A DNA stretch of 64,000 nt, taken from positions 682,001 through 746,000 of the forward strand of contig OZ237743.1 of assembly GCA_965178125.1 (NCBI GenBank), written 5' to 3'. Every line of letters begins with the position of its first letter. Position 1 is the first letter of the stretch. Positions 14,207 to 36,700 of this stretch are shown here, one piece after another. Made by a program: the position numbers and the translations under genes. Below the pieces are notes generated by a model, which saw only the letters and a list, made by a program, of their open reading frames with translations, was not told the DNA's origin and made no database searches. This stretch comes from Bilabrum cf. latius (Eukaryota).

Positions 14207-14261
14207 TGATAAATCATTTCATTGGCAAATGATTTAAGATTAAAATGTTATATAGTTATAT

Positions 14262-14768: not shown

Positions 14769-14821
14769 ATATATCATTTCATTGGTAAATGATTTAAGAT
14801 TAAAATGTTATACAATAATAT

Positions 14822-15391: not shown

Positions 15392-15456
15392 TTGGAATTA
15401 ATAATAAATCATTTTTTAAATAAATGATTTAAGATTAAAATGATATATTATAATAT

Positions 15457-15837
15457 ATGAGAACATCAGAATCAGAAATAGAAATAAAAATAAAAAAAGT
15501 ATATGGATGTCACAGTGAAATATGTACAGGATTATCGGCTATAACAGCCATAAGTTTGTTCATGTATTTTTATGGACAAGATGAATACACAACGACAGTA
15601 AAGGTAGGTATTGGAATATTTGGTTTTTTTTCATATTTATATATTTGTATGAGCATTATGTAGTCAATGTTTAGTGTTCGTGCTATTAATGAAGAAATAC
15701 GACCAGAAATTGAGTTGTTGAAAGAACGACTTCAACAATTAGAATCCTCAGGACCAAGACCGATGACAAATGTTCCAAATCAACCAAACATAATAACTAT
15801 TGGATCAACAGCACCAAGACAACAAGAATCAGTATAA
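15457..15837 (+). CDS. Small protein with two predicted TM segments, 126 aa
   Basis: Two hydrophobic stretches; extends through TAG15661 to TAA15837. Confidence 0.7.
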
Positions 15838-15859
15838 AAAAATACAAACATTAATTATA

Positions 15860-16456
15860 ATGCAATGTTGTATTTGTTTATAGGATATAAATGATTGGAA
15901 ATATGTTCATAATGGATGTTGTAAAGATGGCACGTTTTGTAATGAGTGCCATAATTCTTTGGATACAACCAAGTGTCCAGTTTGTAGACAAGTTAATTCA
16001 GCAACTCAACCAATTCTAAGAACTGATAGCCAATCTGTAAGATTGCATTGGAGTTCAAATTATATATTTATATTAAGGGGGAAGTTACATTCAATTGATG
16101 ATTTGCCATCAATTAGGTGGAATAACACGATATGGCGTGACACAACGATGTGGCATAAGTATGGCAAACTTCACAGAGAAAATGGTCCAGCAGTTATTGA
16201 AAAATGGATACTACTGCATCGTACAACTAAAACATGGTACAAAAATGGTAAACGTCACAGAGACGGTGATCTACCAGCAGAAACTATAAATCATCAAGGT
16301 AATGTATCTAAAAAATGGTTCATAAATGGCAAACTTCACAGAGATGATGGTCCAGCAGTTATTAATTTTCATGGAACACAAACATGGTACAAAAATGGTG
16401 TTAAAGGTAAAATTAAACCAGTGTTCGTGAAAAGAAATACACAAAATGCTAGTTAA
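15860..16456 (+). CDS. RING-like finger fused to MORN-variant (WYxNGKxHRxDGPA) repeats, 198 aa
   Basis: ATG15860, CCICL[TAG]..HNGCC..FCNEC..CPVCRQ, followed by repeats. Confidence 0.8.
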
Positions 16457-16544
16457 TTTGAGTTTGAGTTTCTTACAATAGGAAACCCAGAAACAAATGA
16501 TGTTTTTGCAGAAAACATTGCTCGCTGCTGTGACTAGTGATACT

Positions 16545-16580
16545 AGGTATCACCTCGGAATCGAACCGAGATTTGCAGAG
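16545..16580 (-). pseudogene. tRNA 3'-half relic (T-arm CTCGG-TTCGATT-CCGAG)
   Basis: Perfect T-arm preceded by TCTGC-AAAT; no D-arm or 5' acceptor strand. Confidence 0.5.
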
Positions 16581-16617
16581 TGGAACGCAAATTAATTGCT
16601 GTTAGTTTTCTTTGGAT

Positions 16618-16688
16618 GTGGATTATCAGGAATCGAACCTGAATCTCTAGCTAATGAGGCTAGTATGCTACCGTTACAACATAATCCC
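16618..16688 (-). tRNA. tRNA-Met (anticodon CAT)
   Basis: GGGATTA TG TTGT AACGGTA GCAT A CTAGC CTCATTA GCTAG AGAT TCAGG TTCGATT CCTGA TAATCCA C. Anticodon and T stems are perfect; 1:72 mismatch. Confidence 0.8.
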
Positions 16689-16849
16689 ATTGATGAATTT
16701 AATGAGTAAATACTTAGAATCAATGGATTAACAAACAGGTATTTCCATGGTATTTCCTATACTAGTACGATGAAAACTAATTCAAATTTCGAATGACAAG
16801 GAGGAAACGTTTTTAAGATTCATCGCACAAAGTATATTGAGATATTTCT

Positions 16850-17173
16850 TTAAGTAGAAATTAGATTTAATGTATCTAAGATTTGGTTTATCACTTTAAT
16901 TTTGTTTTCGGTATTGAGTGATTGATAAAGGGATGGACCACCAGTGCTAGGCTTAACTGCTTTGTATTTTAGATCAGAGTGATTAGGATCAATATCCATT
17001 AGCTCGAGTTCTTTTTTAAGTAAAGGCAGGTGGAAATCGATGGCATTTTTGCTAATGCGAGATAGTTCTATTCTTTCTATTTCTTCGATTGGAAATTCCA
17101 CACATCCAAGCAATAATCGATCGGATTTCTTATCAAACATGATTTTAAAAGGAAGGAGTTGACTGTATTCCAT
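16850..17173 (-). CDS. Hypothetical protein, 107 aa
   Basis: ATG to TAA; preceded by an inverted copy of the intergenic repeat. Confidence 0.7.
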   Translation of the reverse strand: MEYSQLLPFKIMFDKKSDRLLLGCVEFPIEEIERIELSRISKNAIDFHLPLLKKELELMDIDPNHSDLKYKAVKPSTGGPSLYQSLNTENKIKVINQILDTLNLIST

Positions 17174-17261
17174 ATATTCTAATTAATGTAAATTAGCCTT
17201 AAATCATTTTTTATGTAAATGATTTAATGCATAAATGATATCCAGTTCTTTTAACAGCGCG

Positions 17262-18332
17262 TCATTTTCCCCCTTTCAATCCCATCAGCATGCTTTTTAG
17301 AATAAAACACACCACATTAACCGACATTGCATTTCCAACCTGTTTATATGTCTGTGCTCTACTAACGCAAATTTTAAAATCTGGAGGAAATCCCTGCAAT
17401 CTTAGATATTCTAGGGGTGTTAGTTTGCGCATGAGTGATGTAATAAAAAATGTGCAATTACCACCACCTCCAGCAAGTAAACATGGTGATATTCCCAGCT
17501 AAGCACCTGTTCTTTTGTATGATGATACATTTAAATTCATTACCCAATCATTCTTGATGTTATCAATCAATCCATTGGACAAAGAATCTTTGATTAATTG
17601 GTTCTTGTGTGGTGTGATTTGAAAATAATATGGATCATTAACATTTTGTTCAAGTATTACCTTAATTCCTATGGGTAATTTTATGGGCTCGGGCGGCACA
17701 AATGATCCTTTTGTACCCACTATGTAAACGCGATCTCTGGATTGCGGCAATCCATAATCCAGTGTGTTGTAAACCTAGTGATGAATATAGTATCCTTTTA
17801 ATGCTGAAAGATGATCCATGATTGTTTTAAAAGTTTTGCCTTTATCATGGCTTAACAGTCCTTTAACGTTTTCTAGAATAAACATTTGTGGTTGAGTTTG
17901 TTTTATGGTTTCGTAACAGTGAAAAAACACAGTTCCTCTGTTTTTATTATCGTCAAATCCCTGACGTTTACCCAATGTTGAAAATGATTGGCATGGAAAT
18001 CCGGCACAATATAAATCTAGTTTGGGCAATTTTGAATGATCACGTGTCATTATATTATCATAAAATATGCGCGGTTGGTGGTTGCATTTAATACTGGCTT
18101 TAGCTGATTTATCTATATCTGATGCAAATTCATATTGAAAAGGTACATTCATGATTTTTAAGGAATGAATTGGTGCATCTATGCCACTACAATCGGTACC
18201 AACTTTTAACTTTGGTGTGTTGTTAGTGATTCTATATAAATCATCATTATATATACTTTTAAGATAACTCATGTACTATGGCAACGTGCTAATACGTGTG
18301 TTTTTATACTTCAAATACTATTCATAACTCAT
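17262..18332 (-). CDS. DNA (cytosine-5) methyltransferase, 356 aa
   Basis: Motifs DCSGID, GFPCQSFS, ENVKGL, DYGLPQSRDRVYIVG, RLQGFP and KQVGNAM in one frame through 4 TAG; TGA17262. Confidence 0.93.
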
Positions 18333-18358
18333 ATAATATGATCAATGAAATTTAACTG

Positions 18359-19564
18359 TTATTTTTTCCATGAGAAAGTCCATTTGTCTTTCTTGTCTTT
18401 TTTCCAAACCACATTGTGTCGCTTATCAAATAGCCGTACCATTTTTGGTACATCCAATTCCAAATTTTTCAGGCTATTCCATTCCGGTTTAGAGTATCCT
18501 TTGTATCTAACAATGTATCCCTATTCGCCATCTCGGACACTGGGACGTGTAATGCTACTAAGTTCAAATCGCTCCGCTAATTTACTCTTGTTTTCCACCG
18601 CATTGATTTGTTGCAAATCCTCGTTGCCATACTTGGTTTTAAGTAAGCCTCCCTGGCTATCCTTAACTTGATACTGGAAAGGACTCCAAGGCTATCGTGG
18701 CTTAAACACCTCGGCAACCTGGTATAAATCCTTGGACCAATTTTCCGCACGTTTCTAGTTTTGGTTCTAGACTAATTTAATTCGTACCTGATCGCCAATC
18801 TTGAATTGCTGGGTTGCCAAATCTTGCTTGGATGCTTGTTTGATTTCAGGAGCCTCTTTCATATTTGATTGTTTCCATTCCTCAATCAATTTATCAGGTG
18901 CTTTACCCGTGGTAGTTTGTGGAGTGGAATTGTATGCTTTGAGATATAATGGCAAGTTAACATCCCAATCATTTTCGCCTGTGCTCAGTAAATCGCTTTT
19001 AATAAATCTTTTGAGCGTGCCATTGAATCTTTCAACGAGTCCATTGGTCTAAGGCTTTCCTGCAGTACTCAAAATCTGTTTAATTTTCAAGGATTTTAAA
19101 CGGGCTTTAAATTTCTTGTTGATAAACTCTGAACCGTTATCGCTCTAGATGGATTTGGGTAATTTGGGTAGTTCATCCAGCAAAAGATCTAAACTATCAA
19201 GAACAGTCTTTTCATTTTTATTTTTCATTGGCAAAGCGTATGCTTTTCGGGTATAGGCATCAATCGCAGTTAGTAACCAATTTGCTCCTCTTGCTGTTGT
19301 GCTACTACTCATATCAACTAGATCTATTTGTAGTTTGTTGAATGGTGCTTTGGATCGAGTAGATTTAATACTTTTGGCTTGGCGTGTTGGTTTTTGCATT
19401 TGATACACCTCTTGATTACTCAGCCAAGAGTAGACGGTTCGTCGTGGTAGATCTACACCGAAATCCAAAGCAAGTTTCCAAAAGCGATCCCGTCCAAGAA
19501 AACTCTTTTTATCGTAGTACAAGTGGTTGAGTATTTTTCGCTATTTATCTGTGATACTATTCAT
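18359..19564 (-). CDS. rve (retroviral-type DDE) integrase with C-terminal chromodomain, 401 aa
   Basis: LQIDLVD, I[TAG]SDNGSEF, KP[TAG]TNGLVERFNGTLK and GYIVRYKGYSKPEW; TAA18359. Confidence 0.92.
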
Positions 19565-19702
19565 TATATATTATCATAGATAAATTCCCACTGGTATTTT
19601 AAAAATAAATTTCTCTCTATATAAGTACACAGACAACTGTGATTTTGCGAATAATTCCGTATTAATTTAATTGATATTAATAGGGAATTCTCAGAAATAT
19701 TT

Positions 19703-20113
19703 TTAGACATCTTGTTCTTCTCCATGAATATACCATTCCTTTCGACCATCAGCCCCAATACACGCTGGTCCATCTTCCCTATGGCGTTTTCCTTTGAACA
19801 TCCAGACTTGGGCTCCATTGGGATAAATACACGCTGGTCCATCTTTTCTATGGCGTACGTCATGCCAGTACCATATTTTAGTACCTTCTGAATCTGTGGA
19901 TGCAGGTCCGTCTTTTCTATGGCGTTTTCCTTCCTTATACCAATACTCAGAGCCATCAGGGTTGATAATAGCAGGACCATCTGCTCGGTGGCGTATTCCG
20001 TGAGACCACCATTCCTTTCTACCGTTGACAAATTCAATTGCTGGACCGCCAACTCTATGGAGTCTACCTTTATACCTCCAAATACGACATTGTTCGCCAT
20101 TAATATCTGACAT
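19703..20113 (-). CDS. MORN-variant repeat protein, 136 aa
   Basis: Five W.xG.xHRxDGPA-type repeats. Confidence 0.8.
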   Translation of the reverse strand: MSDINGEQCRIWRYKGRLHRVGGPAIEFVNGRKEWWSHGIRHRADGPAIINPDGSEYWYKEGKRHRKDGPASTDSEGTKIWYWHDVRHRKDGPACIYPNGAQVWMFKGKRHREDGPACIGADGRKEWYIHGEEQDV

Positions 20114-20150
20114 ATATGATTTCTCTATATATTATTATTTTTAACATAAC

Positions 20151-21578
20151 TCATCCATTAGCACGTCTTCGACGTCTTAATCGATCTAATAGTAATTGCT
20201 CATCCTATGCTTTCTAACCTTGCTTGCCAGCACGACGTTCATTAGCATTGATTCTCCTGTGTGCTTTTGGAGCAACTGCTTTTAATCCCTTATCACCAAT
20301 TACTTTGCGTAGTGGTCCAGCTACTAAACCATCAAAAGCTAGTTTACCAACCTCTTGCAGTAAGCCTCCGCCTTTCAAATTACTTGCTTGTTTATCTTGA
20401 GCAACAGGAAACTAAGGTGTGCCTCCTTTGAGTACATTATACGCATCTCGTAAAGCTTCGCCTTGTGTGGCGTTCACGTATGCACGGCGTTTAGCACCAG
20501 CGAGTTGCATGGCACGTTTCTGGATGGAATCGGGTTTGCTGGAGTTTTTCTTGCTTGGTTGCTTAGCACCTCTGCCTTTAACCTCACCACTTGCAGAACC
20601 ACTTGCAGCACCACTTGCACCTTCACTAGAACCACTTGCACCACTAGAACCACTTGCAGAACCACTTGCGCTCTCGCTAGCACCTTGAGCAGCTGCTTTG
20701 CCTTCGGCGCTGCCTTGTTCGGCACTGGCACGTGCTTTAGCTGATACTTTAATTTTCCGTTTTGGTTTGATTGGAATCCTGGATTTTGCCCTAAGAGCTT
20801 TGGTAGATGATGCAATACTTGGTCTGTATATGCCCTAACGATTAGAGGATTCTGTTGGTGCTTTAGACTGTAGGGTGTTGCTATTTGAGAAAAAGCTTGC
20901 TCCATCAACATATTGGGTATCATCATCTGCACTATCATCATCATCATCATCTCCACCTCCATCTTTACCAACATCATCTCCGCCATCGCCGCCTTGTCCA
21001 GCACCGCTAGCCGGTCCGATACCATCATCCAGATCAATGGGATTGATAGATGATGAAGGACCACCAGTTGCACTGCTTTGTGTTCCTCGGCGTCTGAGAT
21101 CGGGATCTTGAACTTTCTTGAGTAAAGCTTGACTGGCAGATTCCATGGCTTCATCGTAGGCAACTTGGGCTAAAGCACCTATACGGTTTGGTTTTAATTT
21201 GTCAACTCGTCGATTTAGGGACTCGATGTATTTGGGATCAACAATATCGTGCATTCCAAGGGTTTCAACGATTTTGGCGGCAATATTTATCATGGAATCC
21301 ATATTTTCATCATCCTCTCGCTCTAATTGAGTCATTAAAGTACTGATTCTGGCTTTTGCCCGGCGATCATCACGCATTTCCTCCTAATTTAGGAAACCTG
21401 CTTGGCGCAACTTCTTAGTTCGCTCGGCACGTTTAAAGGCTTGTACGCGATCCTAGATATCTTGCTGTAGTTCACCGATTCGTTCCTACTCGATTCCTGC
21501 AGAACCAGCGATACTTTGTTGTAATAGTTTAAGGAGCATCAATCGCTCTTGTTCTTGTGTAGAGATATTACTACTCAT
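20151..21578 (-). CDS. Low-complexity putative virion/core protein, 475 aa
   Basis: ATG21578 to TGA20151 through several TAG; D-rich and ASGS repeats, KGG sites, Arg-rich tail. Confidence 0.65.
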
Positions 21579-21620
21579 ATATACTTGGCAAGAAATAATT
21601 TCTCATGTACGTCTATATAT

Positions 21621-22631
21621 ATGAGTTTAAGTACCATGAGATAGGAAAACAGTAATCCAATAGCATATTCACTTTACGGAGATGGAAAGGTGATTTATTT
21701 CATGCCGAAAGTTTATGAAAACGTAAGCGACAGCGATTCTGAAGACTCAGAAGAAGAAACAGTAGATTAGGCTTACCTAAGGTACAAGATCGGCGAACGC
21801 AAGGCTAGAATCGTCAAGAATCAACCAAAGCACTGGGAGGAGTTACGAGATAGGGGTTTTAAAATCTACAAATTTAAAAACTAGAGTGGAAAGATCATCC
21901 CCTTGATGACTAAAGAGAGTCCTCGTTGTTGTATTTACAACTTTGGAATGTCTGGAAGTGGCAAGACGACTCTTGGAATTGAGATATTGCAAACAATGAG
22001 AAACTTAAATCCAAACTTGTAGATTGTAGTAGTAAACGGAAAACCCTAGGAATCTCGATTCAAAGAATTAGGAATGATAGAAGTCCCGATTCATGAACTG
22101 GTTGTTCCAGACGATTCAGCAAGATTATATCGAGATGCAGTAATTGAGTTTAAACATACAAAGAAAGGCATGGATCCAGAACAAAGGATTGAGGGTGAGA
22201 AAGCCTTGGATAGAATGAAAGTTGCCATGAAAAGAGGTGGTAAATATACTTTAACACCGGGATTGCACAAATTACTAGAACGTCCAAGTGTGTTGATGTT
22301 TGATGATATCGAGGGGGAACTAGAATCAAGAGCCATGTTTTTAGCCGAACACTTACTTGTTAAAGGAAGATCCCATGGAGCGAGTGTAATATGGGTTACG
22401 CACTCTCCCAGTGATTACAGAAAAACCCGTTTGTTGCATCGAGAGTGTTAGAGTTATATTATTTACAGATAGACTCCCGAGCGTGATCGCGAATTCATGC
22501 TATGTAAATACTTAAGTTTAAGCAAAAAACAGATTCATCTTTTAGAGGATTAGTTTAAATCCAGTCGATGGATCTATATAGATAAGATTAATAGATACGC
22601 GGTCACTCAAAGCAAGTGCTTCTTGTTTTAA
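21621..22631 (+). CDS. A32/FtsK-HerA family DNA packaging ATPase, 336 aa
   Basis: Walker A GMSGSGKT, Walker B LMFDDIE and KGRSHGASVIWVTH; in frame through multiple TAG. Confidence 0.9.
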
Positions 22632-23006
22632 TTACTCCAATCCGACGTCTTTAAAGTACCCTTTTGGATATTTTAGTAGCAGTTCTTCGCCTTGTTTAAT
22701 ATCCCGAGTTGGCAATAGCCATCGTTGTTTGATTACGCAATTAGGTTGCATATCGGCACTCTTACCAAAGCCCACTCCATTTACAAAGTTAATAATGTGT
22801 GGTAGTTCTCTGGAACAGATCCATTTGCGGAATGGTCTACGCAAACAGCATCTAAAGTTGCCATATTTGAGTCGAATATCAGCAGTGCTCATTTCAATTC
22901 CAAAGAAATAAGCAATAGGTGTGCCTTTAGGGATGCTATGTTTAGCAAATACTCCATAACCAGCAATGGGACTTTTCTTTATTATTACTATATCATTTTG
23001 ATACAT
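22632..23006 (-). CDS. Small SET-domain lysine methyltransferase, 124 aa
   Basis: KSPIAGYGVFAKHSIPKG, NFVN, PNC and RDIKQGEELLLKY. Confidence 0.85.
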   Translation of the reverse strand: MYQNDIVIIKKSPIAGYGVFAKHSIPKGTPIAYFFGIEMSTADIRLKYGNFRCCLRRPFRKWICSRELPHIINFVNGVGFGKSADMQPNCVIKQRWLLPTRDIKQGEELLLKYPKGYFKDVGLE

Positions 23007-23050
23007 ATATGAAATAGTAGTAATTTTATTTCTAGAGTATAGTTTTTAGT

Positions 23051-23680
23051 TTAGACAGCGTGTTTGAGTGATCGATAGGTAACCATAACCTCGGAGGCTA
23101 GTTGTCCAATGCTGTCGAAAGTTACGTATTCATCACCACCAAACTCAAACTGGCGAAATTGCTCTCTGGAGTGATCGAATACTTGTTTATCAGAATCACT
23201 GAGTTGTTTTCTGATTTGTTCAGAATAGCGTTTGCTTGGAATGGCAACACAGACACTTGTTCGCTTAAAGCGTTCGAGGGCTACATCTACATCACTAGTT
23301 ACGAATATTGCCTTACGATCCTTGTTGATCAACCATTCACGTTTTACATCTTCAATTGCTTGAAGCACAAACTTACGCCGGATATCGGCACTTACCCCTT
23401 TATCTTGGTGTTGTTCACCCCAAGCTAATTTTAATTGTTCGGTAGCGTTGCCAAATACTGATGCTTTGACACATTCATCAAGATCAACTAATCTAAGATT
23501 CTTGTTGCGTGATTGAAGCGTCTTGCATAGCTAACTCTTACCACATTTGCTGGGAATTAAGAGCACTAGCTTTTTACGTTGATCAAGAGGGCGTTCAAAT
23601 ACATATTTATAAAGATACCAAACGGCATGATAGCCTAAAGAAACTAATCCTGTGGCTACTACGGAAGTATTTATCTCCAT
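23051..23680 (-). CDS. P-loop kinase-like protein with N-terminal hydrophobic segment, 209 aa
   Basis: ATG23680, LLIPSKCGKS[TAG]LC...LVDLDE; in frame with track ORF 23051-23368. Confidence 0.65.
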
Positions 23681-23739
23681 TATACTCTAGATAAGAAAAA
23701 AAATAAGAATTGGTGGAATATTTTCTGGTTTAGAGTATA

Positions 23740-24270
23740 ATGGCAGATATACTGACCGACCCAAGAAATACCAATAACCTTTATGCCCCAAGAATGGGAG
23801 CAAAGACTTTACGCTTAAATCCAGTTTTAGGTCCAAGCGATGTATTAGTTGGCAACTCAAGTATTATATTTGAGGGCTCAATAGGAGTACCTTACATCCT
23901 TTCAGAAGCAGATGAGCTTAGATTTGGTAAAAACGCACTATCCGCTGGAATGAGATTATTGTTTAGCAATGATGGCGAGAATTGTAATATTGATCTGAAT
24001 GGCACAGTTAATTCCACTAATGCAGTTAAAGCCCATGGATCAGGCAGTTGGACTGGTGGTTCATCATTGGCAACCTAGACCTTTTCAGCCCCAGGTGTGG
24101 TTGCAGGTGATCACGTTCATATTACTACAACTACTGAACCAACAGGAGGGGCAACTGAGTTTTTGAAAGTGGTTGCAGGAACTGATGAGTTTACAGTCCA
24201 TCTATCCGGTAACGCAGCAGGTAATGAGGATTATGCTTTCAACTATTTGGTTCTTCCTTAGAGTTCTTAA
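23740..24270 (+). CDS. Putative fibre/spike-like protein, 176 aa; homologue of 4985-5506
   Basis: Extends through 2 TAG to TAA24270; similarity to 4985-5506 continues past the TAG. Confidence 0.7.
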
Positions 24271-24325
24271 GTTGATAATTACTGTTATTTAATTATACAA
24301 TTAACTAATAGTAACAATTTAGTTT

Positions 24326-25000
24326 TTAGTTTTGTGCTAAGTAGTATTTTTGCTCCCATTTCCATCGATCGAGAGATCCATCAGACACCGGACGGTGTTG
24401 TTTAAGATATCTATGGACTCGGGAATAAGCACGTCTCCAACTGCACATTTTACGATCCACCATTTCTTTGGCAGTCAGAGCACCTTTATCACCAAAATAG
24501 ATCCATTCACCGTTTTCCTGCTCTTGTACCATCCATCGAAATTCGGGTTTATCACTATCAACCACTTCGACTTTAAATGGTTCAGGTTCGGGTTCGGGTT
24601 CGGGTTCAGGTTCGGGATCACCGAAACCTGGAATTACAAAAGAAACCTATCGCTCTCGTTGTAATTTAGGTGGGCTTAAATCCACAACAGATGGTGGAAT
24701 GGCAGGTTTAGGTTCAGGTTTTGGAACAGGTTCGGGTTTAGGTGCAGATGGTGGAGTGGCAGGTCTAGATTCTGGTTCAGGTTCAGGTTCTGGCTCTGGT
24801 TCAGGCTCTGGTTCATCTGAATCGCTATCAGGTTCAAGAACTGGTTCTGGTTCGGGTTCTGGTTCGGGTTCAAGATCGGGTTCTATTCGTAATTCTTTAC
24901 GCATTAATTCAAGGTATTTGTCACGGGCAACTTTATCGTGAGGATAGGTTTGTTGAGCAACAGACAAAACGTGCAACCATAATTGGTTTTTGGCGTTCAT
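24326..25000 (-). CDS. PE-repeat protein, 224 aa
   Basis: Track ORFs 24647-25000 and 24326-24565 are in frame and joined by TAG. Confidence 0.75.
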
Positions 25001-25039
25001 ATATATTAGCTTAGATTTAATTTGCCACGTAAGATTAAG

Positions 25040-26173
25040 ATGAATTACGATAGCGTATTTAATGCTTTAGAACAGTGGAAGTTTCCTACCTTTTCAGTTG
25101 GAAAAACAAGACGTAAGATTTCAGGTGGAAAGAAAAGTATACCAACTTGTAACTTTGGATTGGTCTAGAAAATGTTTTCTAAAGATAAATCTTGGCAACC
25201 AAGTACTGTTATGGTTAAGAATCCCGAGATTCATCAAATGCTGGTGAAGTTGGGGCGCTAGATTGATCCTAATTTGCGTTTCAGCAATATAACCGTCAAC
25301 AAAAACTTTTTGTGTGCCCCTCATACAGATAGCCTAAACAAAGGTATAACCATGATTGTGGCTTTTGGAAATTACAAAGGAGGAGAGTTAGTGGTAAAAA
25401 ACTAGGATGGAACTCAATAGCAAATCGATATTAATCGGAAACCGTTTTACTTTTATGGTCACAGTTAGGAGCATTGGACAGCACCGTTCACAGGTACTAG
25501 ATACAGTTTGGTTTTTTATAATCATCATCATCATTTGGTAGAGAGACCGCAAACTACTGATAGCAAGGTGATTAAGGAATTGTTAGGAAAAAAGATGGAA
25601 TATACACAGTTTTTCAAGTAGGAGAAAGGGGAGAAGTGGTGTGATATCGGAGCAAATATTGGTGCATTTACAGCCAGATGTTAGATGCATGGAATAGCAA
25701 TCAAGAGTTATGAACCAGATGAAGGTAATTATAATATATTGGTTTAGAATTCTGTAACCCCCGATAATTGTTTTAACCAAGCGGTGGTGGCGGATAGTGA
25801 GACCCGAGAAATCCCTTTGTATCTAGCAAAATCAGAGTGGAATCATACCACCTTAAGAAAGGTGCGAGGAAGAAAACGGGTGATTGTGCCAGCCATTAGT
25901 TTTAAAAAAGCAATCGAGGGTTGTGATTGTGTTAAGATGGATATAGAGGGAGCAGAATTGCCGATCTTGGATCAATGTGATTTTAGTGGATTGAAAAAGA
26001 TGGTAGTAGCCTATCATGTTAACTATGCTCCAGATTTAGATGAGTTATTGAGGCGAATAGAGAGATTAAAGACTTTCTTTCAAAAGGTACAACATGCACG
26101 ACTACCAAAGCGAGAAGCCATGGCAAACAAGAGGGTGTTTCCAAATGAGGTCATGTTGTATTGTAGTAATTGA
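25040..26173 (+). CDS. TET/JBP-like 2OG-Fe(II) dioxygenase fused to FkbM-family methyltransferase, 377 aa
   Basis: One frame with 8 TAG. N-terminal NKNF..PHTD..N...[10 protein letters not shown]...[18 protein letters not shown]-terminal [20 protein letters not shown]. Confidence 0.85.
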
Positions 26174-26287
26174 ATCCTGAATCTTGAAACCTCAATCTTC
26201 AAATTAATTTATTTCTGTATTAAAACCAAGTCGATTAATACGGAATTAATTGTAAAATCACACTCGTCTGTGTAAGTATCCAGAGGA

Positions 26288-26530
26288 TTATTCAATTTTC
26301 TTTTCTTTTTTCCACTGGGCAAACCACGAGTGGGAACTAGCATCTTTGGTAAAATTGCCGACGTTCTTGTATCGCTCGGGGTCCTTTTTGCGCATAACGG
26401 GGTACATTTCTTTTACAAACAGGTTATAGTTGCTGAGTTTCTATTTGGGTCTCTACTTGAGTTGTTGTTTCTTGAGTTTAACAAGTTCGTGTAGGCGTTT
26501 AAGGCTAATCTTTCGAAGATCGATATCCAT
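26288..26530 (-). CDS. Small basic HMG-box/YABBY-like protein, 80 aa
   Basis: RPK[TAG]KLSNYNLFVKEMYPVMRKKDP...WK; absent from the ORF track. Confidence 0.6.
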
Positions 26531-26556
26531 ATATTATTGTAATCTATATTATTTTC

Positions 26557-27984
26557 TTATCTTAATTTCCATTGCTTTAATAAATCCATAACTTGTTTAA
26601 CGTTTGCTTTAGTTCCTTTATTGAGTAACTTGCTAACCTCTGCTTGTTGTTTACGAGTGAGTACATTGGATAAATCTTGTTTTATCCATTGAAGCGAGGT
26701 ACGCTTTGCGTTTGGAAAACGTAAGAACGCCTCTAAATGGTTGGCGGTGTGATTGATTTGTGCAAGTTTAGGATTTTCGAGTGTTTTAAGGGCAGCTCGG
26801 CGTTGTTTGAGAGTACCTTTATTGGATTGAATCACTCGTTTACTTGCTTTGTACCGCATTCCTTGTTTGCGATATTCCCGACTATCGTTTAGTAGTTGGG
26901 TTTGGATTTCCTTGGGATTGGCAAGAGGTTCGAATAGGTAAACCACAGTGATTTCTTGGTAGTATTTGCCATCAAACATGATTAAATCTAGTTTGGCAAA
27001 AGGGTCTTTGCTGATAATAGATTGTATTCTGGGTTCTAACTGTTTTAGATTTTTGACTGTGGGTTTGTAGTGTTTGCCACCTAGTTTAAGTTCCACTGGT
27101 CGAAGGGGAGAACTTTTGGAACTCAATAATTCTACTAGATGGATTAAGTGTGGTACAAACATTGGAATATCTTTTTGTGTTAGTTGTTGAAAGAAATCGT
27201 AATCACTAGCGTACAAGGAAATAACGGGATTGGTTTGCGAACCTTTAAGTTCAATCACGGATTGTTTGGAGGTATTATCTAATTCTAAAAGATTGGCAAC
27301 TTTGAGTAGTGGTTTAGCAAAGTTAAACAAGTTGAATTTGCGAATAATGGGATCAGTTTGTGCTTTACCGCCTTGAATTACAAAGTTTCCAAGACTGTGT
27401 GGATCTAGACCAGCTTTGCGATTGATGCGTTTGCTAAAAGGATTTCCAAGAGAAATAGGATCGCTACTAACGTTGTAACTTTTGGTTTTGCCTTGGGTGG
27501 CAAATCGTCGAATGGTGTTGCCAACTAAGTTTCGAGCGGTAGGGGCTGTTCCAGCATTCCAACCCACACTTTCGATTCCTAATTGCTATCCAATCTAATT
27601 GGCTAAAGCACCTCCTAATGAGTGTCCAGTAAGCACAACTTGTCCATTGCTAAGTTGTTTGATTTCCTCAACCTTTTTTTTCTCTCGTTGAAATCTATTT
27701 CCATTGGGAAGTGTGTTTTTAATGATTCGAGCATCGTCTAATAGATCCTCAGGATCGCTGACAACTGTGCCTCGAAAAGCAACAATATATTGATTTTTAT
27801 CGTTACGATAGACGGCTCGTTTGTTATCGCTTAAACTGGGAACATACATCCATTTTCCTTGTTTGGAGATTATTGTGGTTCGGGCATTGGGTGATTGATA
27901 GGCTTGCCCAGAGGCTTTGACTAGGTGTTGCAACTATCTGACTTCGTTTAAATTACGGGCTTTTTTTCGCTTTCCAGCAAACAT
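26557..27984 (-). CDS. Class-3 lipase-like domain fused to putative nucleotidyltransferase-fold domain, 475 aa
   Basis: VAFRGT, DLLDD and TGHSLGG; downstream KGS..LYASDYDF...KLDL. Track ORFs are in frame and joined by TAG. Confidence 0.75.
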
Positions 27985-28029
27985 TCTATATTACATAGTG
28001 AGATATATAATTTAGAATGGATTTATTAA

Positions 28030-29751
28030 TTAGTAAGAACCTCCCATTGCATCTGCCTAGCTTGAACTCATCACTTGACCTCCAACCATCTAAACCCCAC
28101 CGCCAACATGGTTTACACCAGCACCAGCCATTTTCATAACCTGTCCTAGAGCGGTACTATCACCAGCGACCTTGTTTACACCTGGTAGGTTGCGTACAAA
28201 TTTGCTGGCTTTTTGGACAAATGGTGTAGCTTTCTTGACGAAGTTCTTGAATTTCTTCCAACCGCGTCCACCGCGTCCGCCTTGAATAGCATGTTCGCTG
28301 TCATCCTCAAGATAGACCACAGGAGCGCTGGTGAGTGTTTTGGCTACTGGAATAACAACCTCTTTGGCTTGAATGCGTCCATTTTTAAATTCAATGTATC
28401 CGCCATACATGAAAGGGATTTGGATGGTGTAATCGCCGGCTGCGATTGCATTGGCTGTGCGGTTGGCAATGGTGAGTTGTAGGCTGGTGAGTCTAAACTC
28501 TTTCTTGACACCACTCATTAATTCGGCATCTAGTGGCATCTAACTGGGGCGTAAAGGTAAGATGCTCCAATTGGCGAGTACCTAATTGGCAAGGGTACTT
28601 TCAGCGGGGTTGAGTAGTAAACCAGCAAACTGGGCATAACTACCAACGTAGCCATTTGAAACGGCTAAATCGTAAAGATCGCGAGTGCTGTGATCATCAA
28701 GAAGTTTGAATTTATTGCCGACGGTGCAACTTATGTGAGTAATAGGTAGAGTTATATCAGGACCATAATCATCAGCACCACGATTGACCACAACATGAGG
28801 AACAAACATATCGGGAACAACGTCTTCTCTGATGATGGGAATACTGACAACGGTTTCGCTATTAGCAAGTAAAGCAGTATTACCCTGAAATTCATGAGGA
28901 ATTGTTTTTTCCCATGGGTAGGCGTAATTGGTGCTGAGAGGAACTTGGAGTGCAGCGTTCTTAGTGTGTAGACGCATATTTACAGTTCCTCCTTCTAATG
29001 CAACTCTTAAGTCGTCAAGACCAGAACGAACAAGGCTGGCGGCAACGTTATTAAGTTTTAGTTCAAGATTCCATTGATCCATGCTATTGCATGGTTTTGG
29101 GTACTCTGATTTGAAATCAAAAGCATCGGAGGGTAGACGGCAAATTAAACTGGGAATAGTAAATCTAACGGTGGCGGCATCTACAGCCTCCAGAGTGGCA
29201 TTGTAACGTAAGCCTAAACCGCGAGTGTTGGTGTTTGAGGTGGAGTTAAAACCATCCCGAAGCACATTGCTTTGTGCCAGAGGTACATATTTTGAACTGG
29301 TATCAGGTTCAGGACCATTGGTGATAAGGGAGTTGACTTCAATGGAGTTCATACCAGCCCAGATGTATCGCATTTTGGATGGCTCGGTTTGGATATTTTG
29401 TCCTGCTTGATTGAAATCGATTCTCTCAACAACTGATGATTCGCCGAAGGTGGCGATACCAAGGTTGTTTTTAAGGTCATCGGGGACAAGATTGCCACCA
29501 CCATTGAGAGTTAGTAAGAAACTAAGGTTCTAGAATTCCATATCGGGGATACCAAGCAATCCATCAGCAGGATCAAACTGCCAACGGTAGCTCCAACCAG
29601 TGTTTGAAAGTGGTTTGGTTGATGGGTGATCCTCATAAACCGCATTACGTGCATCGGCTTGACTTTGGTACTTAAGTTGAGAGGGGGCAGTAAATTGGTA
29701 GCTTTTGCTGATTCCAATTTCTAAAGGGAGATTAGAGTTAATTTCACTCAT
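28030..29751 (-). CDS. Virophage major capsid protein, 573 aa
   Basis: Three track ORFs in one frame joined by TAG, ending at TAA28030. DLYDLAVSNGYVGSYAQF resembles the Sputnik-type MCP segment; size, Gly-Gly-rich tail and position after protease and penton fit. Confidence 0.85.
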
Positions 29752-29776
29752 TATAACTAGGTTGTAGAAAAAAAAA

Positions 29777-30688
29777 TCAAGTGAATTCGCTAATTTCCTT
29801 AAACAAACCCTTGATATCGGCGGCTGATTCGCTGGGTAAACTTATTCTTGTTTCAACACCTCTATAATCTAACCAGTATAATTCAAAGGTTAAGTTTTTA
29901 GTACTACCAGATACATCCAGCATTTGAGTCCATCGTGGAGTGCTACTAGCATTATACAAGAAAGATCTATAAGGAGATCCGTTGGTCATAACCACTTTAA
30001 AATCGGTAACAATACTTTCGCTTTTATCGGAGATTTTGCCTTGTGAGTTGAGTGGTAGAGGTGTTAATTCTTGATTAATGGGTAAACCCCGTGCTTTGAT
30101 AAGGATACGAGCAACAGGATCGATATTTTCGAGTGAATCGGTGAATTGTGTTTCGAGATCATTTTCTAGTAGTAGCCAGTTCCAACTATCGGATGGATTG
30201 CCGCTGCCTGATTCAAAACGAAAAGTGTGTAACATTCGGGTTAATCTGGGGTTGAATCCAAGACGATTGGCGGAACGAAAGGCGGTATTGGAGTTGATGG
30301 AAAATAGTTTACCGTCGAAACTAACTGATGGTTGATCACCTGTACCAATGGATAGATTATCACATGCAACTTTGATTGAGGCATTGAGTTCGGCGACGAG
30401 ATCCTGCATGTTGTAGTACAGATCCTCGGAAAAGGTAAGATCAATTATTTCGGCAGTGCCAGAATTGGGTTCAACACTGATTGAAAGTGGATTGAGTGGT
30501 GCTTGGAAAACGGGTAAGGCAACACCGTTGCTAATAAACCATCTAACAATGCCAAACAGGTATCCTTTGTTGGGTTTGAGGAAGGTTGATTGTCGTGTTT
30601 GTTCAAGATTGGTTTCAAGATCGGTTTTGCCTTGGTTGAACTACTATAGGTTTACGTATTGGTAATCAATTACGTGACTTTTTGCCAT
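29777..30688 (-). CDS. Minor capsid (penton) protein, 303 aa
   Basis: ATG30688, two tandem TAG, QTRQSTFLKPNKGYLFGIVRWFI...LPVF; beta-rich and adjacent to MCP. Confidence 0.75.
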
Positions 30689-30711
30689 ATAATTACTACC
30701 AGTGATAATAA

Positions 30712-31233
30712 TTACTGAGTTATTTGAAACACTAGTTTATCTAGATTGGGTTGATTGTTTAGTTTGCTAAGGTATTTTAGGTACTTGTGGTATTGATCAT
30801 TGCTCATCTAGCGATTGGCAAGGCGTAAGACGCAGTGTCGACCACATGTTGCGATATCATCGGAGTATTGTTGGTGTGGGTAGTGGGAATAATCAACTAA
30901 CTTACCAGTTTGCCAGAGTAACTTGGTGAGGTTTTGGTGGTTGAGTTTGCGATCGTAGAGGATTTGTTTTTGTGCACCAGAAAGGTTTACTTTGTGTGTA
31001 TCAGGAAGTTCGCCATAAGGATCGTAGAAATAGATAACATTGGGAGTTTGAATAACACAGGTGTAGTGACCGCTGATGGTGTTGCCATATTGTTCTTGAG
31101 GGTAAAAAAGTACGAAATCGCCTTGGGGTAAACCATGATGTAAGATATCTTTGTATTGTATCCAATTGAAATTGGGTATGCTGAAACGATTGGCAAGATG
31201 AGTTAGTTGTGTGGGGTTTAGGGTTTGATCCAT
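30712..31233 (-). CDS. Adenain-like cysteine maturation protease, 173 aa
   Basis: GHYTC, FYDPYG and QQ...TCGRHC; extends through TAG to TAA30712. Confidence 0.88.
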
Positions 31234-31729
31234 ATAACCATTACCTTATATATTTTATAGAGTTATAATTTGTGTGTTTGTTCTAAGATTTTTTATTTGA
31301 TTGTTCTAAGTTTGTTCTATGTTTTGTTCCATAATTTAAAAGAGATTAAAAGAAATGTTCCATGTTTCCATGTTTTTTTTGTAACCACAGATAATTTCGA
31401 AACGAAATTTTCAGAGAAATGTCAAAAATGAAATATTGAGAGAGAGTGTGAAAAAAATGTGGAACATGGAACATCTGTATTAAATCCGTACTAAACCAAG
31501 TAAAAACTGAGACACAAAATGTGGAACTCTTTTAAATATACTGAACAATATCTTACACCACGCGCTCCGCACGTGCGCTCCGCGACCGCCCCTCGCCCGT
31601 TTGAAACCCCTAGAGAAGTAAATTATATCCATTAAGGAATTGCGGAATCCACAGCAACTCGCAGGAGAATCTGTTCGCGCCCAGCAACACTCTCTCCCGA
31701 TCCATCTCTGCACGTACAGAATAACCCAG

Positions 31730-33600
31730 TCAGAAATTTCGACTCTTGTACAATTCATGGAAAGTAATTACTTTTAACAAAAGTAAAATCCCCTATACTC
31801 TACTCTCGCAGTCCATATGAAACCCGTAGTATACTACGGGTTTCATATGGACTGCGAGACGATGGCCGCTGCTGCTCATTGCAACTCCACTGGCAGCTGG
31901 GCCACTCTTGGCAGCACCGTGTCCTCCACGGGCACGATTGCCGTGTGCAACGATATCACGGTCGCTCTCCCCCTCCATCCGTTGCATGCCACCTCCAATG
32001 CCCTCCTGTCTTGCTCTTTCACCTCGTGCCACGTGCACTCCATGACGGCGCCATGCGACCCCAGCTTCTTCTTCATCCTCTTCGTCATCGATACCTTCGT
32101 CCTCGTCTTCGTCCCCTTCAGAGTCGGTGTCTAGCCTCGCCATCTGCAGCATGCAAGCCTTGCAGTCGTCAAACTGGCCAGCAGCTTCCATCGGGGTGAC
32201 TAGCATGCGGATCTCATCATCGGCTCCTTCCTCTCCTCCAACAGGCACCGCCACCCTTTCGTGCAACGCACTGCGGCGCACTTCGTTGCGGCTCATGACC
32301 ACCGCCATGCCAACGATATCACGGCGCACTGCGAGCGCAACTAGCTCCCTCGCATGGTTCTGGTTCCGAGTCATGCGAACGCGCCGACGAACCTGCCTCT
32401 CGAGTGCCTTCCTCCTGGGCATGTAGCTCAGCACGTGGGCCCTCGACTCCTCGTCCATGCCTGCAAGCAGGAGCTCCACGAACACTTTCCTGCTGCCGCC
32501 GCAAGTCCTCAGAGCGGTTGCGACCAGCTCCATCCTTGCGATCAAGCCATAGTTCAATGACCCTTGTCTTGCCGTTGGCAGCCGACTTGCTCGTGCCAGG
32601 CAGCGCTGGGCGTAGCTCACCAGCGACATCTCGCTATCTCTCCGGTTAAGTGCTGCCCGCACCCTGTAGTCGATGGGAGCGCCTGCGTTCGCCAGCACGG
32701 CGCACGCGCCTACATGACCGCCCTGTATGGCGAGCGTCATGGGACATGATCGGCTCGCGTCAAGGAGCTGCGTTGGGATGAGACGACGCGAGAATTGCTT
32801 TTAATTAGACCTACCATACCTTGTTCATTGCGACAAGCACAGCGAACAGCGTGCCAGAACACCAACCATCGAATTCTCACGGGACCCTCCGCTGCTCGCC
32901 TCAATTTCCCGGACGTAGCTTGCGCCCCACGACTGAGAAATATACTGCAGTTGCCGTACATGCCGCATTGTGCTGCGTACTGTAAGGGCGTGTCCCCGGA
33001 CTGCGAGCATGTTCGCTGATGATCCGGAATACAAATAGATATGGCTGCACACAGATCACAAGAACAAAGGGTGCGTAGGTTTGCTCTCAAACAAACTCAC
33101 ACCTGGCTGCAAGACAACATGTGCCGCGTGGCGCATCAGCAGTCTTGTCGTGGCGGCACTGTCGATACACCCGGCGATATGCACTGGCGTGGGGTTGGTA
33201 AGTCGATGCGTCTGCACAGGTAGCTTGACGGGTAAATAGATTCGCAAGATGATAAAATAGGGCGAATCAATACGATTTCGTCTACCTTGATGAGCCAAAA
33301 CACATATGTCTCACGATGGGTCGAAACCGCACGAGTTCCAGCACTTGGTTCGATGGGGCGAGCACGTCCCTCATGGTCTCGATGGGGTCTGGCCCTCTTC
33401 CAATTGAGGCCAGGGTGTACTGAACGCCTTCGTGGTCACGATTAAGGATAGCCTCTAGCAGGTTGTGCCGTATGGGGCGAATAAAAGCCTCACGGCGCTT
33501 CGGGTACCGACTCGAGTGTTGCCTGCGACATTGGCTTGGGGCGAGGGTGAGGAGAGCGACTGTACCGGATATTGTGCGAAATGCTTGCTGCAACACCGGT
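31730..33600 (-). CDS. Host ankyrin-repeat protein (multi-exon, boundaries approximate)
   Basis: GDTPLQYAAQCG and LAIQGGHVGACAVLANAGA segments in different frames imply introns. Confidence 0.55.
31804..31859. repeat. Perfect 56-bp palindrome
   Basis: TCTCGCAGTCCATATGAAACCCGTAGTA|TACTACGGGTTTCATATGGACTGCGAGA. Confidence 0.95.
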
Positions 33601-34367: not shown

Positions 34368-36700
34368 TCATGAAGGGCCAGCAGCAGCTGCTGCTGCTTT
34401 CTTCGCCGATGCAGGTTCTAGCCGCACCTTGAGCTGCCAGAGCGCGTTGCGCATCACCGACCGGTTGCCCTCCTCGACCAGCCTGCCCACAATCGCGAGT
34501 CTTTCCTCGTCGCTTGGAATGCGGTCTGAGCTGGTGCGCCCGCGAGGCAGCACGGACACGAGCTGCACGTCGAACGTGGTCTCGGTGGAGCCCTCGAATC
34601 CATCCAGAGACGCAGTGAGCTACAGAGAGCTCGCGATGGCGGCGCCCTCAGCGTCTGCGCTCTTCGACTCGCCACCGCTGGCCGGTTCTGGAGCCGCGCT
34701 GGATGCCGCCGCTGGAGGTGCCTTTTCCTCTGCCTTTGTCTCTGCCTCTTCTTCTTCCTAGACGTCTCCGAGCATATCCGCATCCGCCACTGTGACGACC
34801 GCATAGTTGGGCGACGGCTTGCCGCCCGCCGCCTCGGTCGATGCATCCGCATCTGCTCCGCCCATTTCTAGCTTCAGCAGCCCTGCCAGTTCCCCCAGTG
34901 CCTGCTCCAACTGACCGGCACGGAGAGAGGCAGCCTTGACACCGTCCAGACGGACGTGCTGCATGCATTCCAGTTCGGAGAGCTTGACCTTGGCGAGTTC
35001 GCCCACGGTGCCGCCGGACACGATGTCCCGATAGACGTCCATCCCAGCGCCACTCCCCCCACCAGGGGGTCCCCTGCCCCCGCCTCGGGGTCCCCCCATG
35101 CCCCCACCAGGGGGTCCCCTGCCCCCACTCGGGGGTCCCTTGTCCCCGGGCCCCCCCTTGCCAGTGGTCCCTGCGGAGCCACTCCTGGCTGTGGATGTGG
35201 AGCCGGTGCTCATGCTGGCCATGGGCGCACTTCCCATCCCTGCCGCACCGCCAGTTGCAGCTGAGCCCGATCCAGAGCTGGCGCCAGGAGCACCAGCACC
35301 TGACGAGTCCATGGCCATGGGGGCAGACCCGCTTCCTGTAGTCCCCATCCCGCCGCTCCCGCTCCTCGACCCGCTCCCTTCCCCGCCCATGGCCGGCCCA
35401 CGAGCAGCAGAGCGAGCGGCGCGCGCGGCAGCCGCTCGCCTCTTCTCCTCTCGGATGATCAAGTCTCTCCTCCTCATCTCGGCCGCAATCACACCAATCC
35501 CCGGGTCGGGCTCGGCTGCCTCATTGAAGAGCCAAGGGTTCTGCAGCATGCGGTTCATGGCGACCCGGCGGCGGGGATCCCAGGTGAGCATCGCATCGAT
35601 GCACTGCTTGAACCTAGCGGGATTCGAGGTGCAGGACTCGATCCGCAGCCCGCCCCTCTCGTGGTGCTCCCAGAACGCCCTGGAATCGCCTCGAGACAGG
35701 GCCGCGTACGCGCCGCAGTCCTGGGCAGGGTCGCTGTAGTTTCGATAGGCTCTACTCCCGGGGCGGTGCGGCGAATAAGGCATCCTTCCAGTAAGCATGG
35801 TGAACGCCAAGACTCCTAGCGCCCAGACGTCTCCTTTGAATGCGTCGTATTCCCCTCTGGGAATGCCGGCCACCCTCCCGTGGCGATCTGGGCTATTGTA
35901 CATCAGCGTCCCGCATTTCTGCAATGAGAATTAAGTCAGGAAGAGTAGCATCTGCACAGATGCTCGCGAAGTTCACTGTATCGCATCGTTTCGATTGGGG
36001 TGAAGCCTTACCGTTCTTCGAACCCCCCTCGTGTCAGCTGCCATAGCAGCCATCCCAAAATCAATCAAGCGAATGTCGCAATCCGACTTGTTGACCATAA
36101 TGTTGTCGAGCTTGAGATCGCGATGAGCAACGCCAGCTCTATGGCAGCAGCCGACAGCCCTGACAACTCGCCGAAGGAGGAACTTCGTAACATTCTCAGG
36201 CAAGCCTCCAAGCCGAACAATGTCGAATAATTCCAGTCCGGTTACAAGCGGATAGACTGCAACAAGCTGCGGAGTCTCAGCCGGGACCCGCTCGAACTCG
36301 CTGGAACCAAGCGCACCAACTCGAACGGTACTTCGCGTCCACCCAACCTCGACAGGCTGCACGATTCTCTATTTTTCGGCTGTGCTGATAGGTAGCTCTC
36401 CAATGGCCTTAAAGCTAGCGCATTCTGTTCTCGCTTCGCGGATACGAGCGTCTCGCTTTGCCGGATCGTCTATCTTGATCAGTTTCACGGCAACTTTTCT
36501 TCCATCAGGCCCCCATATCCCCTTAAAAACCTTTCCGGTTCCACCAAATCCGATGTAAGACTCAAGTGTGACCTTGTCGAGCAAGTCCTCTGATCCTCTG
36601 GCTGCGCAGACGCAAGCAAATTCACACGCACGAGTGCTCTATTTCTTCACGTATCTCGCATTATTACAATCAAAAGTATCTTAAACTTACCTGAAGCCAT
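34368..36700 (-). CDS. Host Ser/Thr protein kinase (CAMK-like); introns 36690-36602 and 36011-35919; 3' end approximate
   Basis: IGFGGTGKV, VAVK, HRDLKLDN, DFG, CGTLMY and DVWALG; GT-AG introns restore frame; in-frame TAG at 36369, 34758 and 34620. Confidence 0.85.

Follow-up and report, generated by a model that had tools for sequence, protein, structure and literature searches.

Probable endogenous mavirus-like virophage DNA with TAG as a glutamine codon in a 64,000-nucleotide window of Bilabrum cf. latius

The stretch of DNA analysed here (the window) comprises 64,000 nucleotides of contig OZ237743.1, positions 682,001 to 746,000 of the forward strand, in the assembly GCA_965178125.1 of Bilabrum cf. 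latius, and is divided near its middle into a low-GC and a high-GC part. The questions raised by this locus are what the low-GC part represents, in which genetic code its genes are written, and how far it extends. The original prediction, made from the letters of the window, proposed an intact provirophage encoding an integrase at 18359-31557, with UAG read as glutamine. With high confidence, the whole of 1-31556 is regarded as endogenous, mavirus-like virophage DNA adapted to TAG as glutamine, belonging to a multi-copy family that resides in the nucleus of a Cafeteria-related stramenopile.

Capsid genes and virophage identity

The GC content ranges between 27 and 50% in 1-31556 and between 50 and 66% in 31557-64000, with a step from 0.30 to 0.51 at about position 31550 in windows of 100 nt. 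Upon reading of TAG as a residue, 1-31556 is tightly filled with open reading frames (ORFs) on both strands, and 18359-31233 is filled by 13 ORFs without overlap. The low-GC, TAG-recoded viral DNA was delimited at 1-31556 by the GC profile, the TAG counts, the GC content at third codon positions (GC3), and the codon frequencies.

The gene at 28030-29751 on the minus strand encodes a virophage double jelly-roll major capsid protein (MCP) of 573 amino acids with five TAGs, as identified from Pfam, PDB, BFVD, and the fold predicted by AlphaFold2 (AF2). By sequence, the MCP matched Pfam family PF22031 (MCP_V20_C; E 1.7e-11), the mavirus MCP 6g45 (E 2.2e-10, residues 88-549), and the Sputnik MCP 3j26_A (E 7.1e-6, residues 264-435). 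The AF2 model, built on an alignment of 30 rows (pLDDT 76.4, pTM 0.72), gave the mavirus MCP as its best match (E 1.1e-33, TM 0.78) and next the Sputnik MCP (3j26_A; E 2.7e-25, TM 0.72), with PBCV-1 and other double jelly-roll capsids far behind the virophages at about E 1e-11. A fold other than the virophage double jelly-roll, the outcome that had been named as contrary to the prediction, was therefore not what the model gave. The penton (minor capsid) gene is located at 29777-30688 on the minus strand, 25 bp upstream of the MCP gene, and its product matched the mavirus penton 6g41 at E 8e-23, residues 27-299 being aligned with 33-306 of 307; the match to Sputnik 3j26_N was at E 2.2e-4. The element is an integrated virophage with a virophage-type double jelly-roll MCP and an adjoining penton.

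The MCP had been described as Sputnik-type, and the element as a mosaic of a Sputnik MCP with a mavirus integrase. Both capsid proteins, however, score better against mavirus than against Sputnik, and for the MCP the same order was obtained with the fold; this part of the prediction is not upheld. The MCP lineage is thinly sampled: only 76 of 1.84 billion representatives matched at E<=1e-3, and among these representatives the nearest match outside its own cluster is 28% identical. Relatives of the MCP were absent from two IMG/VR scans (one with the MCP alone, one with a 3-row alignment) and from one JGI metagenome scan, and neither the MCP nor the penton found a match by tblastn in a phage sequence collection.

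The retroviral-type (rve) integrase, located at 18359-19564 on the minus strand (401 amino acids, seven TAGs), was correctly predicted: it matched PF00665 at E 1.4e-16, with 61 bits against a cut-off of 32.6. In two virophage contigs of IMG/VR, L006 and L021, the integrases are 30% identical to it over 398 amino acids. A P-loop ATPase at 21621-22631 on the plus strand is a putative packaging ATPase of FtsK/HerA type, with a Walker A motif recognised by eye (GMSGSGKT) and a weak P-loop match in Pfam. In both L006 and L021, the ORF that lies upstream of the protease and penton genes shares 20.6% identity with it over 238 amino acids (E 2e-6); homologs were found in two of 28 virophage-type IMG/VR loci, and the syntenic ORF there gives weak AAA matches. 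The gene at 30712-31233 on the minus strand encodes a putative cysteine protease, with homologs in four of the 28 loci (the best 37% identical over 119 amino acids, E 9e-21). Its residues H56, D71, Q121, and C130 are invariant in four of four sequences, and this His-Asp-Gln-Cys order is typical of adenain/Ulp1-like (clan-CE) proteases. In L021 the gene order is ATPase, protease, and penton, and the L021 penton matches Pfam V18-19 at E 1.4e-17.

Farther to the left, at 5910-8687 on the minus strand, lies the gene for a PrimPol/PriCT-2/helicase replication protein of 925 amino acids with 20 TAGs (PF09250, E 7.2e-16; PF08707, E 3.2e-6). A total of 293 homologs were found, many of them on contigs of 19-27 kb, and the protein family also occurs at the 28 IMG/VR loci. 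Both L006 (19.2 kb) and L021 (20.3 kb) combine homologs of the PrimPol-helicase, the integrase, the ATPase, the protease, and the MCP. The possibility that 1-18 kb is a fragment of a giant virus was considered and rejected, since the PrimPol-helicase family occurs on virophage-sized contigs of 19-27 kb together with virophage integrase, protease, and MCP.

Reading of TAG in the virophage and in its host

A total of 95 in-frame TAGs were identified in 24 of the 27 ORFs taken as genes in 1-31556, and the 27 ORFs end with TAA in 19 cases and with TGA in eight. Within 18359-31233 the in-frame TAGs number 45, distributed in 11 of the 13 ORFs, and all 13 end with TAA or TGA. The longest frame in 1-31556 increases from 371 to 929 codons when TAG is made sense; in the control with the other stops, it stays at 371 codons for TGA and reaches 501 for TAA. 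TAA and TGA remain stops in the viral DNA. In the standard code, the MCP frame yields ORFs starting with ATG of 263 and 149 amino acids instead of one of 573. Under TAG as glutamine, the integrase, ATPase, lipase-like protein, MCP, penton, and protease are all full-length, and the claim that these genes are uninterrupted holds.

The residue inserted at TAG was deduced from homologs. The closest MCP relative in a collection of 5.8 billion proteins (P0001; 574 amino acids, 72% identical) has glutamine at four of the five TAG positions of the MCP and threonine at the fifth. A second relative (P0002) has glutamine at the first two TAG positions and stops exactly one residue short of the third, which a TAG at that site in its own gene would explain. 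For the PrimPol-helicase, 13 homologs were aligned and 20 TAG columns were read. Glutamine is the commonest homolog residue in these columns, accounting for 44 of 200 non-gap cells (22%) against 3.2% overall, and in control columns with CAA or CAG the proportion is about 25%. The column of the TAG at residue 577 holds glutamine in all 13 homologs, and two further TAG columns in 10 and eight of the 13. At the TAG positions of the C5-methylase gene (see below), the columns are variable or unaligned and the inserted residue is not indicated. These alignments show that TAG is a glutamine codon in the virophage genes, in the pattern of NCBI table 15, and the recoding originally proposed is thus supported at the level of the residue.

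Among the putative glutamine codons, the share of TAG is 43%, 19%, and 21% in three sub-segments of the viral DNA; TAG represents settled codon usage therein and not occasional read-through. The view that annotation in the standard code breaks up the element was borne out by the protein collection, in which relatives appear as pieces, one of them ending exactly at a TAG position. A lineage confined to hosts that read UAG as glutamine, and a helper virus that avoids TAG stops, as originally proposed, would be conjectures. P0001 is recorded as a full-length protein of 574 amino acids, and its gene copy may carry no TAG at all; the nearest virophages in IMG/VR use the standard code. No tRNA with the anticodon CUA was found in the window by ARAGORN and Rfam, the sole tRNA therein being a tRNA-Met.

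The same codon is open in the high-GC part. Five long host ORFs in 31860-64000 are free of TAA and TGA but contain 55 in-frame TAGs, 12 of them in a frame of 3610 codons. The host ArgRS was aligned to human ArgRS straight through a TAG, and in the protein collection an 89%-identical relative breaks off immediately ahead of this TAG. The host nuclear genes read TAG as sense. TAG positions in a host kinase lie in variable or unaligned columns, by which the inserted residue is not indicated. Per codon, TAG is more frequent in the virophage than in the host.

The best named matches of the ArgRS were Cafeteria (49%) and Blastocystis (46% and 43%). In a tree of 17 rows, restricted to named matches, the host groups with Cafeteria (support 99/98) and then with Blastocystis (100/98). 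This single gene tentatively places the host among the stramenopiles as a relative of Cafeteria. No published report of a nuclear code change in a stramenopile was found in a search of the literature that covered main texts. Candidate host introns of 93-113 nt with GT..AG ends were observed on the minus strand at 32768-32880, 33001-33100, 33212-33314, and 35919-36011, and joints of this length in the public runs X7 and X8 look like spliced introns.

Ends, copies, and extent of the viral DNA

The right end is exact at 31556/31557: in contigs of the public runs X3 and X7, position 31557 is immediately preceded by a GC-rich sequence that is the same in both runs. The adjoining host sequence, 31557-31859, is a dispersed repeat that ends in a perfect palindrome of 56 nt (31804-31859) and provides the context of integration. 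In X3 and X7 this repeat stands behind non-viral sequence, at least three different continuations follow after 31859, and its depth in public runs is above that of its neighbours; it might have served as the target of integration or belong to a transposon of the host. The sequence preceding 31557 in these virus-free contexts has no match in the window, the GC-rich block at 9850-11650 included, and three 30-mers from loose ends of run contigs likewise have no match in the window, the other contexts lying outside it.

In X5, a run of a differently labelled organism (organism B) from another study, a contig of 5600 nt extends from 26235 across 31557 to 31833, and thus the virus-host junction was assembled independently; after 31859 the X5 contig continues into different sequence. 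The abutment on host DNA, as predicted, is confirmed up to this junction, while the link beyond 31860 depends on the window assembly. This contig, which in the run of another organism passes from virophage into the GC-rich repeat, makes it very unlikely that a free virophage genome (episomal or from particles) was misjoined to a contig of the host, with the repeat or the palindrome as the false joint. Such a chimera would agree with the depth of the virophage, about five times that of the flank, and with the location of the junction at a dispersed repeat ending in a palindrome where all the listed short-read contigs break, but indels and numerous substitutions separate the copies, which is usual for integrated families, and the unusual code is common to virus and host.

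The depth in X3 is 277-291 over 16500-18500, 215-282 over 18501-31173, and 46 on the host flank, although read depth in the runs is not a copy number. Alternative continuations were identified at loose ends of X3 contigs at 31237, 31537, and 31557. A joint from 17244 to 18358 in X3 indicates that the methylase gene is skipped or replaced in another copy with syntenic flanks, and a joint from 23038 to 23675, present in both X3 and X5, skips the ORF at 23051-23680. Among 39 listed differences between X3 contigs and the window copy, 25 are synonymous, 11 non-synonymous, and three non-coding; X3 holds 63 further differences beyond the 39 that were classed. Contigs of X5 over 16500-31859 differ from the window virophage at 0-12 positions each; the lack of X5 cover beyond 32.5 kb is not evidence of absence. 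These observations point to several non-identical copies and not one isolated insertion. The pattern is that of a family whose related copies have diverged with purifying selection acting on them, as is described for the endogenous mavirus-like elements (EMALEs) of Cafeteria. No RNA run was listed for the virophage part. Over the host part, the cover of X7 and X8 resembles that of spliced transcripts, and their lack of virophage cover is uninformative on expression, as are small patches of X8 at 17.8-18.5 and 24.5-25.8 kb that end loose at low-complexity repeats.

The excess of synonymous differences, 25 against 11, also bears on whether the insertion is an old relic that can no longer replicate. 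A relic would be in keeping with the lack of visible terminal repeats, with the GC-rich block inside the left part, and with the DNA polymerase-like ORF described below, which is short (499 amino acids) and is recognised by no family model. On the other hand, every ORF is open under TAG as glutamine, the lengths agree with those of homologs (MCP, 573 versus 574; integrase, 401 versus 399; penton, 27-299 versus 33-306 of 307), and the second organism's run contains long stretches with only 0-12 differences per contig. A dead element is regarded as unlikely.

The left boundary first proposed cannot be retained. Position 18359 is the stop codon of the integrase, 26 bp from the start codon of the C5-methylase gene, and low-GC, TAG-recoded ORFs continue to the left of it as far as window position 1. 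In X5, a contig covering 18249-19351 spans 18359, and synteny is kept across this position in other copies, such as the one joining 17244 to 18358. A complete and self-contained provirophage of 13.2 kb, exactly at 18359-31557, was attractive since the four morphogenesis genes and the integrase are all inside this interval and full-length. It is now hardly credible: the depth of 277-291 over 16500-18500 resembles that of the virophage and not that of the host flank, and the interval contains neither a replication gene nor a terminal repeat, the replication genes being outside. The segment 18359-31557 is only the right arm, in which the capsid module lies together with the integrase and accessory genes. 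The description as intact is likewise not supported, no terminal repeat or left end being present in the window and the left part being broken up by the GC-rich block.

The low-GC viral DNA at 1-31556 is one large virophage or a composite array, and it continues past the left edge of the window. In the composite case, a virophage of about 19.5 kb (from about 11.65 or 12.4 to 31.56 kb) would adjoin a second element, either a virophage or a polinton-like virus (PLV), present in part at 1-9.85 kb, with the GC-rich block between them. The total GC content rises stepwise from 29% through 33% to 40% along the viral part, with the 45-50% block at 10-12 kb; gene pairs in the left and right parts are paralogous (42.5% identical); the stretch at 11.84-12.40 kb is AT-rich, repeat-bearing, and non-coding; and about 19.5 kb is a typical virophage size. 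Nested and recombined arrays of virophages and PLVs are described in Halocafeteria in a preprint (bioRxiv 10.64898/2026.07.28.741278). The right part alone, however, contains no recognisable replication gene, and the promoter-like motif described below is common to both sides of the GC-rich block. GC3 is 0.29, 0.28, and 0.35 in the three viral sub-segments against 0.68 in the host, and thus the stepwise GC profile arises mostly from codon positions 1 and 2; the codon frequencies correlate at 0.77-0.87 between the viral segments and negatively with the host. In addition, the right terminus gave no inverted match at 11.6-12.7 kb (score 33, shuffle maximum 29), and the GC-rich block does not contain the sequence that precedes 31557 in contexts free of the virus. 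The composite is therefore a serious but less favoured possibility, and a single element is the somewhat likelier case.

Several results weigh against the reading of 1-31556 as mavirus-like virophage DNA on a code shared with its host. In BFVD, virophage MCPs headed the matches of the MCP fold: Sissi came first and Qinghai Lake second, followed by a protein of an adintovirus, an entry without a name, and then mavirus, which places Sputnik-like (Sissi) and Qinghai Lake virophage MCPs above mavirus; this order being mixed, the label mavirus-like is based on the comparisons with PDB, on the penton, and on the integrase. The protease and the packaging ATPase, both of the original prediction, stand on motifs and on homologs in virophage contigs, and neither is supported by a curated family (Pfam) or by a PDB entry. 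The candidate for a family-B DNA polymerase, an ORF of 499 amino acids at 2530-4029 on the plus strand, shows the motifs YDINSHYP, NSLWGKL, and HTDS by eye; it matched nothing in Pfam, PDB, or PHROGs, an IMG/VR scan gave no relative, and its AF2 single-sequence model was unusable (pLDDT 35.9). Neither a terminal inverted repeat, nor a target-site duplication, nor a left end was found within the window. Among the listed short-read contigs none bridges the palindrome at 31804-31859, and with the contigs breaking there the connection to specific host genes beyond 31860 comes from the window assembly. The TAG in a conserved block of the host ArgRS sits in a variable column, by which the amino acid at host TAG is not indicated.

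Accessory genes, known relatives, and biological meaning

The remaining genes of the right arm include, on the minus strand, a MORN-like repeat protein (19703-20113; a paralog of the C-terminus of the product of 15860-16456), a SET-domain protein (22632-23006; PF00856, E 2.9e-6, bit score 28.1, cut-off 22.4), an ORF of 209 amino acids without functional assignment that is skipped in some copies (23051-23680), and a class-3 lipase-like protein with the motif GHSLGG (26557-27984; PF01764, E 2.4e-4, bit score 21.4, cut-off 22). The gene at 23740-24270 is a paralog of that for a 173-amino-acid protein at 4985-5506 on the plus strand (42.5% identity over 127 amino acids). At 25040-26173 on the plus strand, a 2-oxoglutarate-Fe(II)/Tet_JBP-like domain (PF12851, E 2.9e-6, below the cut-off) is fused to an FkbM methyltransferase (PF05050, E 3.6e-9). 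The right terminus, 31234-31556, is AT-rich and non-coding and contains short repeats; no inverted counterpart to it occurs in 1-31233, and the left end may lie outside the window.

On the left, a DUF5872 protein is encoded at 4224-4931 on the plus strand (PF19197, E 8e-21). The GC-rich block (45-50%; 1.8 kb, 9850-11650) contains two ORFs to which no family was assigned, one with a single weak PHROGs match (E 0.0027); six other unassigned ORFs had no PHROGs match. The block may be a piece of host DNA that was captured, or else an insertion of small size. Near it, a repeat of 140-200 nt occurs in three copies, 82-84% alike, at 1198-1400, 8830-9036, and 11655-11835. At 309-461, close to where the window begins, six tandem repeats of 20 nt were observed, and the stretch at 11840-12400 is AT-rich and non-coding and has TTATGATAGGAA-like repeats; both may be sequences of origin or terminal type. 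Seven small ORFs follow at 12399-16456 on the plus strand, including two RING fingers (weak matches) and one MORN-like protein, and five of the seven are preceded by a promoter-like motif. This motif, AAATGAYTTAA(N)GATT, has seven exact matches against 0 expected, at 552, 2037, 13260, 13617, 14227, 14787, and 15422, and six of the seven are located upstream of ORF starts. The tRNA-Met (CAT) lies at 16618-16688 on the minus strand (ARAGORN; Rfam RF00005, 48 bits), and the cytosine-C5 DNA methyltransferase gene at 17262-18332 on the minus strand (PF00145, E 2.4e-62; M.HhaI, E 2e-37). Accessory genes such as the methylase and the ORF at 23051-23680 vary between copies. The C5-methylase (17262-18332), the SET protein (22632-23006), and the Tet/JBP-like-FkbM fusion (25040-26173) could form a set for modification of DNA and chromatin.

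Among known systems, mavirus and the EMALEs of Cafeteria burkhardae resemble the window element in the rve integrase, the module of MCP, penton, and putative protease, the putative packaging ATPase, and the primase/helicase, in being integrated at a GC content far below that of the host in several non-identical copies, and in the best scores of MCP and penton, which are those against mavirus structures (PDB); the host ArgRS, too, groups with Cafeteria. The window element differs from them in its use of TAG as glutamine throughout and in its viral DNA of at least 31.5 kb. Its MCP is 16-17% identical to that of mavirus in the structural alignment, terminal inverted repeats were not seen in the window, and the candidate protein-primed polymerase (pPolB) is recognised by motifs alone. 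Sputnik-type virophages share the double jelly-roll fold of the MCP, and PF22031 is named after Sputnik V20, but the sequence matches to them are weaker than those to mavirus (MCP, 7e-6 versus 2e-10; penton, 2e-4 versus 8e-23). Sputnik carries a tyrosine integrase and not one of rve type. L006 and L021 hold homologs of genes of the window element, with identities of 40% and 34% for the helicase half of the PrimPol protein, 30% for the integrase, 21% for the ATPase, 37% for the protease, and 25% (E 2.5e-11) for the MCP; unlike it, they use the standard code, with ORFs intact under table 11 and an MCP frame of 594 amino acids without stops, and they are environmental contigs for which integration is not shown.

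Reactivation and layout of EMALEs are described by Koslova et al. 2024 (PMC10945749), where Cafeteria EMALE04 has core genes on its flanks and small ORFs with a DNA methylase in the middle, as in the present case. Recoded endogenous viruses have a precedent: according to Bellas et al. 2023 (PMC10120064), MCP genes of endogenous polinton-like viruses in Streblomastix strix follow the host code, in which TAA and TAG are glutamine. Those elements are likewise integrated double jelly-roll DNA viruses that use the stop-codon reassignment of the host, but they belong to a polinton-like MCP group of Metamonada with both TAA and TAG reassigned, whereas the window element is a virophage in a stramenopile host with only TAG reassigned. 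An ochre-suppressor tRNA in one virophage was taken as a hint of host recoding by Paez-Espino et al. 2019, and tRNA-Met is listed there for many clade-14 virophages, as the commonest tRNA in one virophage clade (PMC6905037). Within the scope of the literature search given above, no published report of a recoded virophage was found.

From these genes, the following course of events may be proposed. The rve integrase would have inserted the virophage beside or within the dispersed host repeat, and the virophage would stay silent until a compatible giant virus infects the cell. The giant virus's transcription machinery would then read the virophage promoters, and the mRNAs would be translated by the TAG-decoding apparatus of the host. 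If transcription by a giant virus and translation by the host are combined in this way, the helper giant virus must also tolerate TAG as glutamine.

The broader proposal, that UAG was reassigned to glutamine in the nuclear code of a stramenopile near Cafeteria which carries active, multi-copy virophages fully on that code, is tentative and put forward as a possibility. If it is true, an undiscovered giant virus that reads or tolerates TAG as glutamine is predicted, since virophages replicate only alongside a giant virus, and the result would be a system of three partners in which a change of the genetic code failed as a barrier to viruses. That a second organism, under a different label, has nearly identical virophage DNA is a hint of recent spread. 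It has been proposed that endogenous virophages give protists an inducible protection from giant viruses; to date, this has been shown in Cafeteria. With its methylase, SET, and Tet/JBP-like genes, the element is a candidate for the study of how integrated virophages are silenced or marked. Pipelines using the standard code miss such elements, the relatives of which appear in the large protein collection only as fragments, and the locus suggests that a stramenopile uses a non-standard code in its nucleus, a matter of interest apart from the virophage. A virophage family adapted to this code would show virophage, host, and presumably helper virus tracking a stop-codon reassignment together.

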